Assembly (NCBI GenBank): GCA_964016885.1 | Contig: OZ024741.1 | Location: 47,740,001-47,804,000, forward strand | DNA: 64,000 nt | Origin: Eledone cirrhosa | Taxonomy: Eukaryota | Direction: 5' to 3' | Part shown: piece after piece, positions 43,200 to 64,000 of the stretch | Numbering within the stretch: the stretch's first letter is position 1 | Layout of the letters: each line of letters begins with the position of its first letter | Position numbers and translations under genes: made by a program | The notes under the pieces: generated by a model | The model's database searches: none | Seen by the model: only the letters and a program-made list of their open reading frames with translations | What the model was told of the DNA's origin: nothing

Positions 43200-44220
43200 T
43201 TAGCAAGTAAATTTATGACTTCGTATAAAATAACATGGTTCATGTTTTAATTATATTCTTAAGATAAACATTTAAAAAAATTTTTAACTTTTTAACTTTA
43301 TAACATTTAATCCTTAGAGTCATCTGAGTTCTTAAAAAATCACTTATAACTTCCTTTACGCTCCCTTACTGTTTTTATAATATAACTAAGTGGTTATTCT
43401 TTTGTAAACTCTCGAAAATTTTTCATAAATTTAGAATTATTTGGATGTTTTAAATTTTTGACTTACAACTTTTAATAAAATAAACTATACTAGATTTGCT
43501 CTAATGTAAAATACTATATATTTATTTAAATAATTTATAATCCTTAACATACACATTTAAACTAATTATTAAATTATTAAATTAAATCTTTAATATTAAG
43601 GTAAATCTTAATCTTTAATTTTGATTTCTAATTTTTTAATTTTAATTTTAATCTAATTTTTCAACCTATCATTATAAATATTATAATCAAAACATAATGA
43701 ATCCTGCATTATAAATATTATTCTTCCACGTTATTCTCATTTCTTCATTTCTTCTCTCACTTAAATATACTTACGCTGTATTTATCCTTTGAAACTTATC
43801 TCTTCATGCACGCTATTTTCACTGTCAATATATATAATTCGTTCTTTCTTTCCTCTTCTATCTTTCTCATTTCTTTCTTCATTTTTTCTTTTTTTTCTCT
43901 CTCCCTCACATATCACCTTCTTCCAACAATTTAATTTAAATAAACCGTTTTCTTTTCAACCCTTTGGACACTCATTTGCATACTCACTCATAATTTTGTA
44001 TCACCCTCAATAAATGTAATATCTCCACTATCCAGGAAGCTCCAACGGTTAAGGTTGTCATTTTTTTTTTTTTTTTCCGGGTATGTCAATATTTATTTAT
44101 AAAACAAATCTGTATTTTATCTGATGAAAGCGCACCATAATTTGCCTTGGTGGCCCTTGAAATGTGTATAATAAAATAAATATGGTTTTATAAATATAGT
44201 TTCCATTTATTAGTATATTG
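43200..44220 (+). mobile_element. Penelope-like 3' UTR/pLTR fragment, G-poor and apparently unedited
   Basis: Strongly G-depleted plus strand, CT-rich block, then a hammerhead and tail aaatatggttttataaatatagtttccattta shared with 46700-46740 and 63595-63630. Confidence 0.65.
44113..44178 (+). ncRNA. Type I hammerhead ribozyme
   Basis: tattttat CTGATGA aag..cacca/tggtg..ctt GAAA tgtgt ATA ataaaata. Confidence 0.7.
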
Positions 44221-44237
44221 TATATATATATATATAT

Positions 44238-46346: not shown

Positions 46347-46474
46347 AAAGTTCTATTTAAAATTGTTGGGATACAACAAGTAAATATTTTTATAACTGAT
46401 ATAAAGCACTCGACAAGTATTTGGAGTAGATATACAATATTAATAAATGGAAACTATATTTATTAAACCATATT

Positions 46475-46539
46475 TATTTCATTATACATATTTCAGGGAT
46501 ACCAAATTAAATTATGGTATGCCTTCATCAGACAAAATA
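46475..46539 (-). ncRNA. Type I hammerhead ribozyme
   Basis: Reverse complement of the HHR at 46637-46701. Confidence 0.75.
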
Positions 46540-46636
46540 CAATATATAACAGTTTTACAAATAAGCTTTGACGTACCCTTTTAAAATGCAACCATTATTT
46601 TTGGAAGCCATCTGGATGGCTTCCAAAAATATATTG

Positions 46637-46701
46637 TATTTTGTCTGATGAAGGCATACCATAATTTAATTTGGTATCCCTGAAATATGTATAATGAAAT
46701 A
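46637..46701 (+). ncRNA. Type I hammerhead ribozyme
   Basis: Stem I tattttgt/atgaaata, CTGATGA, stem II agg.atacca/tggtat.cct, GAAA, short near-palindromic stem III, cleavage triplet ATA (46691-46693). Confidence 0.75.
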
Positions 46702-46745
46702 AATATGGTTTTATAAATATAGTTTCCATTTATTAATATCGTATA

Positions 46746-47335
<590 letters not shown>

Positions 47336-55796: not shown

Positions 55797-56321
55797 ATTA
55801 TATATTATACTTTACGTTATAGTTTGACGTTTATAGGCGATTTTTCACTCTTCGTGGGTACTCTAGGAACATAACCCCTGTGAATACCAGGGGACGACTG
55901 TACATATGTGTTTCTGACAGAAAGTTATTTGTCACTAATATACTTGGACATCTCAATGAAAAGAATCAGAGAAGCATTTAAACAGATTATTTAATGCCAA
56001 AACATCAATTGGGGGGAATACAAGCAAGTGAATTTATGTCCAAAATAAGCTGGACAACAAAGGTATGTGACATGTTCAAGATACAGACCAATAAACTTAT
56101 TAGGGATAGCCAGTTGGTTTGGGAGAAGCCAAAAATAGTAAGAGAAATGGCCACATCGTTTGGAGGACTCAGTGGTCAGTGAGATTGCTGGAAGTCAGTA
56201 AACAAGTAGCTGAGATACTTTTGCCAATTTCTGTTATAAGCCCTCCATTCTGAATTTGCTCAGTTCTGATGCCCCTTTTTGGTAGAAAACTGTAACATAA
56301 TGAAGAGTCTTTCCTATTTAA

Positions 56322-56529
56322 CACTTGAGCATTTACTTTACTCTATATTTACTATTATATTTTCATGGTAAAGTCCTTACCTCACATAATATGGAATCTA
56401 TGAGATTTTGATAGTATTTATTTTGAGAACAATACCTTAACATCAGTATGAGTGGCCAGTTACAGCCGGTTTGAGCAGAAAGAGGGGAGGGAATTTTGGC
56501 CAGATATATCTGGTTTAAATGCTAAAGGG
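56322..56529. mobile_element. TTAA-CCC MITE, family A
   Basis: Homologous to 4410-4610; ends taaatgctaaaggg|ttaa. Confidence 0.75.
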
Positions 56530-56762
56530 TTAAACCCCCAAAGTGACCAATTTCTTAACATTTCTGGTCCCAAATACATAGCAGAGATATTTTGGCTGAA
56601 CATGATGAGTTGAAGTTAGAGTCTTATAGTGCGAAGTACCATGTATTGGGAATTTATGAATGAGTTATTGCATCCCTACATGAGGGGCTATCACTACCTT
56701 TAATGTCAACTAGGCAACCACGGAGGATGTAGACCTCAGAGAAACACATTACTGAACCATAA

Positions 56763-56933
56763 CCCTTTAGCATTTACATTACTCTATATACACTAGTGTA
56801 TTTTTGTGGTAAAGGCTTTATCTCACATAATATCGAATCTATGAGATGTTGATGTTATTTATTTTGAGACTAGTTCGAACAGAAAGAGGTGAGAGAATTC
56901 TGGTCAGATATGGCCAGTTTAAATGCTAAAGGG
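56763..56933. mobile_element. TTAA-CCC MITE, family A (internal deletion)
   Basis: ccctttagcattta ... taaatgctaaaggg|ttaa. Confidence 0.75.
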
Positions 56934-58019
56934 TTAAAGGATCATAATTTTATACAATTTTGTATAATTAAATAAAATATATTTCATAATAGAATGTTGT
57001 AGCTTGCTTGAAGCATTGTGTATAGTATATAATGTAGAAAGTGATATATTTAATCTTTAACAAGCTGTCGGTGACATATGGCACTACAGAATAATCTCCC
57101 CTTAATAGATAATGCAGTATCAAGGGAAACAACTCATATAAATTACTAGCGTGCTAAAGATTAAGAAGGCTAAGACAATCTGAAATAGATGGTAAAATGA
57201 AGGCAACAAAAAGCTTATCTGGTATTTCATGTTTTTTTGTTTTTTTTTGTCCTAATATTTCGGGTCTTAAAAATCCCTTCTTCAGAGTGTGGGGAACTCT
57301 CAGAGCAAAATGTTCCAGTTTTATCGCTTAGAAATTTCATTTAAATATCAAATTTCAAAACTGCTTTTGAGCATTGTTTTGAAGTTTGCTGTCATCCACG
57401 AGAAGCAAGAGGATAACGTTAACTGCAATATATTTCCTGTGAATAATAAATAAGTCGCTAAACATCTTTGTTGTATGTACTCTAGAAATATACAGTGAAG
57501 GCACATGGCTCTGTGGTTAGGGTATTTGGCTTACAATCATAAGGTTGTGAGTTTGATTCCTGGTGGTGCATTGTGTCCTTAAACGAGACACTTTATTTCA
57601 TGTTGCTCCAATTAACTAAGCTGGCAAAAGTGAATTTTACCTGTAGTTTGAATGGCCAGCCTTGTCACATTCTATTTCATCTTGAATTTCCCTGAGAACT
57701 ATGTTAAGGGTACGTGTGTCTGTGGAATGCTCAGCATGTTAATTTCATGAGAAGGCTGTTCCGTTGATCAGATCAACTGGAATACTCATCATTGTAGCTG
57801 ACGGAGTGCCTCAGTCAGTAGAAATATCCAGAATGAGGAAGAGGATCATATGGTGTTACTTGATTTAATGTGGGTGAACGTGGCCGGTGTACTGGAAAAT
57901 GCAGGCTTAGTAATTTTCTTAGTGTGGCCAGAGCTAGAATTGTCAAATACTAGGTTTGCTAACTTACTAAACTGTAAGTTGGAATTATTTTATTTGGGAA
58001 AATAGGCTTCTACTGAGAA

Positions 58020-60590: not shown

Positions 60591-60649
60591 GAGATACTGC
60601 GCATATATATATATATATGTATATATATATGTATATATATATATATGTA

Positions 60650-60757
<108 letters not shown>

Positions 60758-60885
60758 CATGGAAAGTTATATTTAAATTGTTGGGTTACAACTAGTAAAT
60801 ATTTATAACTGATATAAAAGCACTCGACAAATATTTGGAGTATATTGACAATATTAAATGGAAACTATATTTATAAAACCATATC

Positions 60886-60951
60886 TATTTCACCATATAT
60901 ATTTCAGGGATATCATATTAACAATATGCTATGCCTTCCTCAGACAAAATA
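60886..60951 (-). ncRNA. Hammerhead ribozyme with mutated cleavage triplet (AUG)
   Basis: Minus strand tattttgt CTGAGGA agg..cct GAAA tatat ATG gtgaaata. Confidence 0.65.
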
Positions 60952-62339
60952 CAATATAAACAGTTTTATAGATAAATAGATTCGACATACCGTAACAACA
61001 TCGACTTGTATTTGAAAAGGTTGATTTGGCAGTGAAAAAATTGTACACAGAGAGAAAGAAAGAGAGAAAAAAAGGAAAGAAAGACAGAAAACGAAGAAAA
61101 AGAAGTAAAAGAAGAAACGCATGGAACAAAATAGAGAGATGGAAAGATAGACAAAGAGAAGAACTCCATGCAAAGAAACAGAAAGAGATCTATATATATA
61201 TAGAGAGAGGAAATAGAGATAGATACATATATATAGAAAACTAGGTAGTGGGACGTCTGTCGAGTAAACGTATCAATGATACACCCACCCATTCACTCAC
61301 CTACTCAGCTCTAGTATCAATGCAAGGGAGACATACGGAGAGAAACCAGCTGTTATACAGAGAGAGAAAAAATATATAGAGAGAAAAAATATAGAGAGAG
61401 AAAAAATTTAAAAATAGCCAGACACAGGCGAGGCGTAAAAAACCCCATGTTTTAATGTAGAGGTATTAGTATTTATAAAAACCAGCCACTATATTGTAAA
61501 TATCAGTATTCCTGAACGGGACATGCATCCACAATGTGTGAAAATCAATGATCCCACGCCTAGTTTTTAAAAAAAAATTCATATGTTTATGTGATAACTA
61601 CAAACATCTATGTGAATCCACATGATCAACTCCGCAAACCCCAAGTTCACGGAAAACACTCCCAATGTGGTATAAAAATCTAAGTATACACACATGTGTA
61701 TATATATACACACAAATACACATAGAGTCAATATTACTATTCCTGTCCCTACTCCACAAGACCATCTATCAAGCAGAAATAGAGAGCAGATTTCAATACA
61801 CCAATAAAAATATATATCAGAAACAAAACTAAAAAATAACAATAATAATAATAAGTAATAATAAAATAGAAAACTAAAAAATATTACGAAAGAATATTAC
61901 ATATTAAAAATATTACATATTAAAAAATTTACATATTAAAAATATTAAAAATAAAAAATATTAGAAAATACTACAATAATAAAAATAAAAATAAACCACA
62001 AAGATCAACCCTCCAAAACCAACCGACAACATACCGCCAAGCTCACCACAAGCATCAGAGTCGAAAAACAGACAAAGCCAAAAACCATCCATCAAATCGC
62101 ATCTAGCAAAGATCACTTCAAAAAGTTTAGGACGCCCAATCTGGTCCACATGTGTTCCTACATTCAATATAGAAGTTCATCCAGTGCAACGCCTATTCGA
62201 AACACTTGGAGCATCAACCTCTAGGGCAGCCCAACTCCCCACGAAGAATGCCTAAATAAAAATAAAATAAAAATAAAAAAGAATAAAAAGAAGGAATCAA
62301 AGATTTATCGGCCAGTTTCCCATATAATCATAAATCAAA

Positions 62340-62888
62340 CTAAACACACCACATCCCAAACCTAAACTTATATCCAAACGTTGAGTTCAATCCATGTCTG
62401 CAACAACCGAACAAATTTGTCCGTAGACCAAGGGAATCCCCAGACCTTAGTATAAAGAACATCTCCCCCGCGCAGAGGCCACATGTCCCAGAGGATGAAC
62501 CAAAAGGAATCCCTCTTGAGACCACACTCCAAGCCGTCGAATATCCAACGCCATCTAGCCCAAGTTGCCAGAGCACGCCTGACAGTGCCGTTGAAGACCC
62601 CCCGCCTGGACCCGCGAAAGAACCCCCGTGGCTACCACAGCGAAGTCCAAACTCCGTCGATGTGGAACCGACGCAGCCAAAAGAATTAGAGTCAGTATCA
62701 ACATCACAATTGCATACCATACCTCTAACCAAGCAGCCGTTATTCAACGGACATCCAGATCCATCTCCACAGCCACATCTGTCAACTTGTACATCACCCA
62801 TGCTATTATCACTAGGTTTTAAGTTCCCATTATCCACTCCATCAACATCCTGTGCCAAATTTTTGGTGGACAAGTAGGTCAATCTCAC
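62340..62888 (-). pseudogene. Penelope-type GIY-YIG endonuclease domain, A->G hypermutated
   Basis: CGC...CPL..CL, MVC, GCVG, FGLRCGSHGGSF, TALS..W.L, CGLC..E and CRH become the Penelope motifs CNC..CPL..CL, IIY, NYIG, FKLRYNNHK.SF, CNLC..E and CRHK when only G->A reversions are applied. Confidence 0.85.
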
Positions 62889-63527
62889 CGTATGTCCATT
62901 GAAAACTGAGCGACACCCAATAGGTTAAAAAACTAGGCGTGGGATCATTGATTTTCACACATTGTGGATGCATGTCCCGTTCAGGAATACTGATATTTAC
63001 AATATAGTGGCTGGTTTTTATAAATACTAATACCTCTACATTAAAACATGGGGTTTTTTACGCCTCGCCTGTGTCTGGCTATTTTTAAATTTTTTCTCTC
63101 TCTATATTTTTTCTCTCTCTGTATAACAGCTGGTTTCTCTCCGTATGTCTCCCTTGCATTGATACTAGAGCTGAGTAGGTGAGTGAATGGGTGGGTGTAT
63201 CATTGATACGTTTACTCGACAGACGTCCCACTACCTAGTTTTCTATATATATGTATCTATCTCTATTTCCTCTCTCTCTATATATATAGATCTCTTTCTG
63301 TTTCTTTGCATGGAGTTCTTCTCTTTGTCTATCTTTCCATCTCTCTATTTTGTTCCATGCGTTTCTTCTTTTTCTTCTTTTTCTTCGTTTTCTGTCTTTC
63401 TTTCCTTTTTTTCTCTCTTTCTTTCTCTCTGTGTACAATTTTTTCACTGCCAAATCAACCTTTTCAAATACAAGTCGATGTTGTTACGGTATGTCGAATC
63501 TATTTATCTATAAAACTGTTTATATTG

Positions 63528-63593
63528 TATTTTGTCTGAGGAAGGCATAGCATATTGTTAATATGATATCCCTGAAATATATATGGTGAAATA
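63528..63593 (+). ncRNA. Hammerhead ribozyme with mutated cleavage triplet (AUG)
   Basis: tattttgt CTGAGGA aggcatagcatattgttaatatgatatccct GAAA tatat ATG gtgaaata; inverted copy of 60886-60951. Confidence 0.65.
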
Positions 63594-63631
63594 GATATGG
63601 TTTTATAAATATAGTTTCCATTTAATATTGT

Positions 63632-64000
<369 letters not shown>

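Follow-up and report, generated by a model that had tools for sequence, protein, structure and literature searches.

A retroelement copy of Eledone cirrhosa that carries the same A-to-G changes in both of its inverted arms

Overview

In the window, that is, the whole stretch of 64,000 nucleotides of the Eledone cirrhosa genome analysed here, positions 60760-63631 read as a 5'-truncated Penelope-like element followed by an inverted second copy of its own 3' end. This copy has the anatomy of its family, a load of A>G changes on one strand in an ADAR-like sequence context, and the same changes in both arms. Very probably, ADAR edited a sense RNA paired to a long antisense partner, and the edited sequence was then inserted in the germline. 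Judging from the changes that they have in common, the two arms would derive from one edited sense RNA or from its cDNA. The copy is of interest for the mechanism that it exposes rather than for the change in its ribozyme.

Structure of the element and family assignment

The studied copy retains the last 188 codons of the coding region, the 3' UTR, the hammerhead and an 81-nt tail, and it sits in a (TA)n repeat, within which no target-site duplication could be read at the left flank. Its features are the following:

60600..60759, no strand: (TA)n microsatellite, left insertion flank (from the sequence)
60760..60840, minus strand: 81-nt tail, present on the left end only, with zero A>G edits (family positions 2036-2116)
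60848..61571, minus strand: left arm, the genuine 3' end (3' UTR / pLTR), with 36 A>G changes, continuous with the body in relatives
60886..60951, minus strand: putative type I hammerhead, left copy, with triplet AUG instead of AUA (G at 60894) and G at 60893 (from motif and fold)
61572..62348, minus strand: unique 3' UTR, edited apart from a T-rich tract (from sequence comparison)
62349..62919, minus strand: coding remnant of the C-terminal GIY-YIG endonuclease, in which about 45% of A is now G (from sequence comparison)
62920..62926, no strand: filler of 5-7 nt at the head-to-head junction, spanned by contigs of runs X1 and X2 without mismatch
62925..63631, plus strand: right arm, the inverted copy of the 3' end, lacking the tail and carrying the A>G set of the left arm and a private 4-nt deletion
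63528..63593, plus strand: putative type I hammerhead, right copy, with core CUGAGGA at 63536-63542, GAAA at 63574-63577 and G17 at 63585
63632..64000, no strand: (TA)n microsatellite, right flank, which extends about 490 nt beyond the window end

On the minus strand the relatives run unbroken from 62917 to 60841, which identifies the left arm as the genuine 3' terminus and the right arm as its inverted copy. The arms (60848-61571 and 62925-63631) are identical in 703 of the 724 aligned columns, and they differ at three bases and in one 17-nt tandem unit.

Concerning the family, an intact relative (L197) has a single open frame of 745 codons with DIANYY, MGS, YRDD, FLD and IAY/YVG motifs, and the full unit is about 3.8 kb long, including a 3' UTR of 1.5 kb. 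Scans of the ORF against Pfam and PDB sequences gave no significant family. PF26215 was present in 24 of 32 protein homologues, and the homologues of this ORF include one from an octopod. The single ORF of the intact relative combines reverse transcriptase (RT) with a GIY-YIG endonuclease at its C-terminus, as in EN+ Penelope-like elements, the window copy corresponding to its last 188 codons. A pLTR with a type I hammerhead, an inverted 5'-truncated copy and a one-ended tail were also found, and these features are described as defining traits of EN+ Penelope-like elements (PMC8557442, PMC4209133).

By its motifs alone, and against the published description, the family can be placed in the Hydra clade as a putative member. 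The family protein presents RWR, DKT, a CNCRDRSKC linker, CDLC and CKH, with one Cys between IAY and YVG. This corresponds to the single RT-EN frame, the RWK-like and DKT motifs, the CxCx5C linker, the absence of CCHH, and the CxxC and CxH near the C-terminus of that clade (PMC8557442). The hammerhead in the pLTR, the (TA)n target, found here on both flanks, the inverted 5'-truncated copy and the one-ended tail are likewise features of the Hydra clade (PMC8557442). However, those elements are generally shorter than 3 kb and have a tail of 30-40 nt, whereas the unit described here has about 3.8 kb and a tail of 81 nt, and the accessible text of that account makes no mention of edited copies such as the studied one (PMC8557442).

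A>G load on the coding strand

The studied copy was compared with close relatives drawn from the same 3.0-Gb genome. Relative to the column majority of 29 of them, 204 of its 210 differences are A>G on the coding (minus) strand. These changes affect 204 of 638 A positions, versus T>C at only 2 of 822 T positions. Taken singly, 28 relatives gave 183-212 A>G changes each, and the 29th (L033) is itself edited.

The changes present the hallmarks of ADAR hyper-editing, since they are clustered A>G on one strand and G is depleted 5' of the changed A. An A with a 5' G was rarely changed (9/78 versus 194/567, Fisher p = 2.3e-5), and the depletion of this 5' G is the conserved ADAR motif (PMC5625713). 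A 3' G was favoured next to the changed A (35/71 versus 168/574, p = 1.0e-3), and a 3' A was favoured too.

Regarding the reliability of the sequence, two runs of one sample yielded contigs that agree with 62528-63009 (482 nt) and 62544-63009 (466 nt) with zero differences, and a contig from a second sample matches 62320-62490. The check with read contigs covers 62320-63030, and runs X1-X3 belong to one sample, which may be the source of the assembly. Because contigs of two samples match, the edited sequence is not an assembly error.

Edits common to both arms

All of the 36 A>G changes of the left arm recur in the right arm. With a stricter filter, in which a panel of 191 unedited segments was used, 31 changes were shared and none was arm-specific. 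The arms also share two private changes other than A>G and the private 4-nt deletion, which is found genome-wide in only one other arm.

Because both arms hold the same sense-strand changes, the inverted arm was made after editing. This agrees with the first-pass annotation, made from the letters of the window, which had proposed editing and an inverted arm copied after it from the same RNA or cDNA; the one-strand load and the ADAR-like context speak for A-to-I editing fixed in DNA, and the sharing of the changes under both filters speaks for the later origin of the inverted arm. The same annotation had argued that the present arms are not the duplex that was edited, and this also held. Had the two arms formed the edited duplex, the A>G changes of one would be matched by T>C changes in its partner; when the arms were aligned to unedited relatives, as had been suggested there, the A>G sites were shared by both arms. 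Moreover, editing is densest in the unpaired body, where 146 of 323 A are changed (62930-62031), the final 400 nt (61130-60731) having 4 of 100, so the present arms are not the edited duplex. As the A>G changes lie on the sense strand, the template was a sense RNA, which rules out an antisense template for the copies with shared edits.

Other edited loci in the genome

Further edited copies were found with targeted, mostly A>G-directed patterns and one DNA search, and their counts are not to be read as frequencies. These copies have overlapping but different edit sets. The studied copy and L095, for example, have 77 edited sites in common and differ at 111 of 304 sites; by this comparison, the edit sets would be particular to each event.

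Ten candidate loci of the shared type were obtained, and the seven with at least three edits in the arm overlap were kept, while L187, L200 and L201 (0-2 edits) were left out. Shared edits account for 31/31 sites in the window copy, 17/17 in L095, 6/6 in L202, 3/3 in L157, 3/3 in L159 and 8/9 in L162, and L199 has 62 shared edits in arms that are otherwise identical over about 1100 nt. Nine arm-specific calls at L199 were discarded as alignment artefacts of an internal repeat, and they vanish on direct alignment. Together, the seven loci have 130 shared sites versus one arm-specific site outside the misaligned part of L199. At four of the seven, neither arm contains the other and the tail is on the shorter arm.

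A different pattern was seen at five hairpin-edited loci (L105, L174, L179, L180 and L148), where both hairpin arms are edited on one strand, one arm having 10-22 A>G changes and its partner 17-25 T>C changes. Since these loci retain opposite-strand differences between their arms, the arms are not homogenised after insertion.

Some other observations were made at these loci. In L108 and L199, which belong to two subfamilies, editing has a sharp onset within the ORF, near family positions -33 and -9 respectively. In L108, 5 of 633 A are edited upstream of this onset versus 121 of 325 downstream, and the onset is close to the truncation point of the window copy. A universal fixed 5' boundary of editing was considered and rejected, as L209 is edited from -513. 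At L195 (4917-6690) there is an edited antisense pLTR end together with upstream host sequence that seems edited over about 1.5 kb, the sense 3' ends being unedited.

Origin of the inverted arms

The sharing of edits makes it likely that both arms were reverse-transcribed from one edited RNA molecule. Twin priming at two fixed start sites is the best fit, and we hold it with moderate confidence, fold-back being its rival. Under twin priming, ADAR would edit a double-stranded sense transcript, probably paired to a presumed antisense partner, and the two cut ends of the (TA)n target would each prime reverse transcription on the same edited RNA. One priming would take place at the tail end and the second 81 nt inward from it; both cDNAs would be truncated and joined head to head.

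The junctions were examined in 69 cases. In 65 of them the tail terminates one arm, while the other stops at family position 2035 or at most 6 nt away, and in 5 the arms have no overlap at all. After dropping 15 repeats of one inherited junction, 54 distinct junctions are left, in which the tail is on the shorter arm (24), on the longer arm (15) or on one of two roughly equal arms (11). With the Penelope protein PAc, both strands of the target were cut and extended in vitro, and reverse transcription began at two sites that delimit the tail (Frangieh et al. 2024, PMC11167929). The studied family would resemble this element in the two tail-bounding RT start sites, in the extension of both strands and in that hammerhead cleavage is dispensable; PAc is a Poseidon element, from another clade, and the accessible text of that work does not state an origin of the arms from one RNA (PMC11167929).

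In the fold-back explanation, which is possible but rather doubtful, the RT would stall on the same edited sense RNA, the cDNA would fold on a short match and copy itself as far as its 5' end, and the endonuclease would afterwards trim one tail. It accounts for the perfect sharing (130 sites versus one), and the shared 4-nt deletion is mildly in its favour: this deletion and the two private changes other than A>G could be first-strand errors that passed into the second arm, or could come from a parent absent from the assembly. About 30 of the 54 distinct junctions have 1-11 nt of overlap, as estimated from crude BLAST ends, and Craig et al. ascribe the tail to endonuclease resolution (PMC8557442). 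Nevertheless, extra exact trimming would be needed at 24 of the 54 distinct junctions, at four of the seven shared-edit loci and at the five junctions without overlap, whereas no trimming is required for the arm ends to coincide with the two start sites seen in vitro (PMC11167929). It is far less probable that an earlier edited genomic copy was re-transcribed, in which case the marks would be shared by descent and the arms might stem from separate RNA molecules. An edited sequence can be passed on, as in the edited palindrome of 27 examined copies of another family (see below). However, no parent or sibling with the G set of the studied copy was found among the best 40 candidates of a DNA search, in which the best non-self match to the body was of 85%, or in searches of the genome with the GG and 4-nt-deletion patterns. 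Besides, an edited parent would have to have been lost for each of seven unrelated loci, and the edits common to L203 and L204 point to a local duplication, as their flanks are also in common.

Self-priming on an antisense RNA template, a model put forward to explain head-to-head repeats (PMC3846280), and gene conversion between the arms after insertion are both highly improbable. If an antisense template had been edited, the coding strand would carry T>C changes, but 204 A>G versus 2 T>C were observed, and 8 of 52 coding segments were A>G-rich and none T>C-rich in a search that was one-sided and hence not symmetric. As for gene conversion, the hairpin-edited loci keep 32-56 unrepaired arm mismatches, and the differences between the arms of the studied element persist.

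Returning to twin priming at fixed sites, it is an evenly balanced proposal that the ADAR marks act as single-molecule barcodes for arms primed in this way, and that edits reach germline DNA so often that they build up, round after round, in a retrotransposon lineage that replicates.

Hammerhead site

Both arms read GAAA-TATAT-ATG-GTGAAATAGATATGG, with G at 63585, 63586 and 63594 in the right arm and at 60894, 60893 and 60885 in the left arm. The first-pass annotation had set this ATG against the GAAA-N5-ATA of the window hammerheads at 46645 and 44121, and the difference was confirmed at the coordinates of both arms. Because the older copies with those two hammerheads are only 87% and 74% similar to the studied element, closer relatives from the same genome were compared, and all 34 aligned close non-self segments read ATAATG at the cleavage site. 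Regarding the three G that had been flagged, two (63585 and 63586) are private, but G63594 is a common subfamily variant, present in 11 of 60 aligned segments. Counts of 20-mers in the genome gave 7055 for A17 and 68 for G17, 3 of these with GG (both studied arms and one other locus), which goes against the alternative, raised in the same annotation, of a subfamily that already read ATGGTG.

The assignment as a ribozyme rests on motif and fold. The CUGANGA and GAAA core, stems I and II and a short palindromic stem III are present, and the constrained hammerhead fold has -2.5 versus -2.6 kcal/mol in an unedited copy, being the minimum-energy fold in neither. A scan with Rfam gave no match to a hammerhead model at E<=1, only microsatellite noise. 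The triplet is AUG in both arms, outside the NUH rule for cleavage, and it likely impairs the self-cleavage of the studied copy. G17 has been proposed to trap C3, and it is strongly detrimental to minimal hammerheads, but four with tertiary stabilisation retained activity (PMC3884650). Animal Penelope hammerheads show weak cleavage, likely as dimers (PMC4209133), and hammerhead mutants had no effect on insertion in vitro (PMC11167929).

The inactivation of self-cleavage, on which the first-pass annotation had centred, was not borne out as the point of the editing. The G17 of the hammerhead is probably a by-product that would lower the self-cleavage of an already dead copy. Since this copy is truncated and 66 of its 188 codons carry non-synonymous changes relative to an intact copy, the loss of the ribozyme is unlikely to matter. 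An explanation in which editing targets the cleavage site, and blocked cleavage let the RNA be copied whole, is improbable, even if the cleavage dinucleotide holds two of the four A>G calls made in the final 400 nt. G17 is found in about 1% of copies (68, where C or T is found in 4 and six other A positions give 38 on average), that is, 1.8x the mean of these positions and 17x C plus T, an excess to which context preference or inheritance could contribute, and 32 of the 68 G17 copies lie in 16 inverted pairs. The T>C control at the hammerhead was unusable, as a subfamily variant adds 1150 matches. Against such targeting, among 16 other edited copies, none of which had been chosen for this site, the A at the cleavage site is changed in 3, whereas the most heavily edited positions nearby reach up to 9 of the 16; moreover, the 7055 copies with an intact site were still copied across it, and cleavage is dispensable in vitro.

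The 16 inverted pairs have G17 in both arms of short, otherwise unedited elements of several subfamily backgrounds, and they may reflect low-level editing of the site or inheritance from G17 parents. As a separate observation, a short element at L205 (1079-1540) has G at hammerhead position 1.1 in both arms and the 4-nt deletion in one arm only.

Inherited edited palindrome in a second family

A hairpin-edited palindrome of the studied family is carried by a second Penelope family within its long 3' UTR; this second family has a near-intact frame and its own intact hammerhead:

L148 8184-8573 and 26 other loci among L141-L177: passenger palindrome

In one arm of this palindrome the hammerhead GAAA core and A17 are changed, and the other arm has T>C. 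Among the 27 copies, 13 of the 15 shared variable sites are A/G on the coding strand of the second family. Further A>G gains in subsets of these copies are consistent with added rounds of editing, hot-site recurrence and descent both being possible sources, and the inherited palindrome suggests repeated rounds of editing in the germline. The amplified edited palindromes were also considered as hammerhead-dead yet mobile elements, and this was rejected, as they are passengers in the 3' UTR of a family with an intact hammerhead of its own.

L105 (4416-4889) is a member of the second family with another edit pattern on the passenger palindrome, and both of its long inverted arms repeat the edits. 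Fold-back into flanking DNA was tried as the source of this long inverted duplication and rejected, the palindrome being a passenger of the second family.

Comparison with known systems

The nearest precedents are LTR copies edited by APOBEC and the hyper-editing of RNA by ADAR. Vertebrate LTR retroelements hyperedited by APOBEC also carry clustered deaminase marks of one strand, frozen at insertion (PMC4866542). In those elements the marks are G>A from C-to-U on the cDNA, whereas here they are A>G from the RNA strand of a Penelope-like element, and Knisbacher and Levanon reported APOBEC-edited LTR copies as absent from 19 invertebrates (PMC4866542). ADAR hyper-editing of repeat dsRNA shows the same clustered A>G and upstream G depletion (Porath et al. 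2017, PMC5625713), but in that case the marks are in RNA reads and here they are in genomic DNA and heritable.

A literature search that covered few subscription journals found no published ADAR-edited copies of Penelope or other retroelements fixed in genomes. A>G hypermutated avian retroviral sequences carry ADAR-type marks captured by reverse transcription; they are retroviral and come mostly from cell culture, and, unlike the studied copy, they are not known to have an inverted-arm barcode. In the twin priming of LINE-1, a single RNA is primed by two ends of the target, and the outcome is a 5' inversion whose junction lies at short matches. The two LINE-1 cDNAs copy separate parts of the RNA, whereas those of the studied element would overlap, with the second start at a fixed site.

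The making of the inverted repeats and the one-sided tail of Penelope elements has been described as still undefined (PMC8557442), and the antisense-template model was left open (PMC3846280). Edited copies record the template strand and the origin of the arms from one or two molecules, which makes these questions testable from genome sequence alone, and they show a route for RNA edits, normally transient, to become heritable. Furthermore, one event changed about one third of the A bases, and a young copy would seem about 10% diverged, which misleads the dating of repeats.

Other features in the window

At 46347-46751 an older subfamily is represented by a short head-to-head palindrome free of edits, with hammerheads at 46645 (plus strand) and 46531 (minus strand) and the tail on the left arm. 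At 44080-44228 there is an older and more diverged 3' end that bears a hammerhead, with 74% similarity to the studied element, followed by a microsatellite and then by other sequence. Two-copy direct repeats about 400-440 nt apart, with 85% identity, are found at 56319-56938, and a weak tRNA-like match (29.9 bits) at 209-272 is possibly the head of a SINE.
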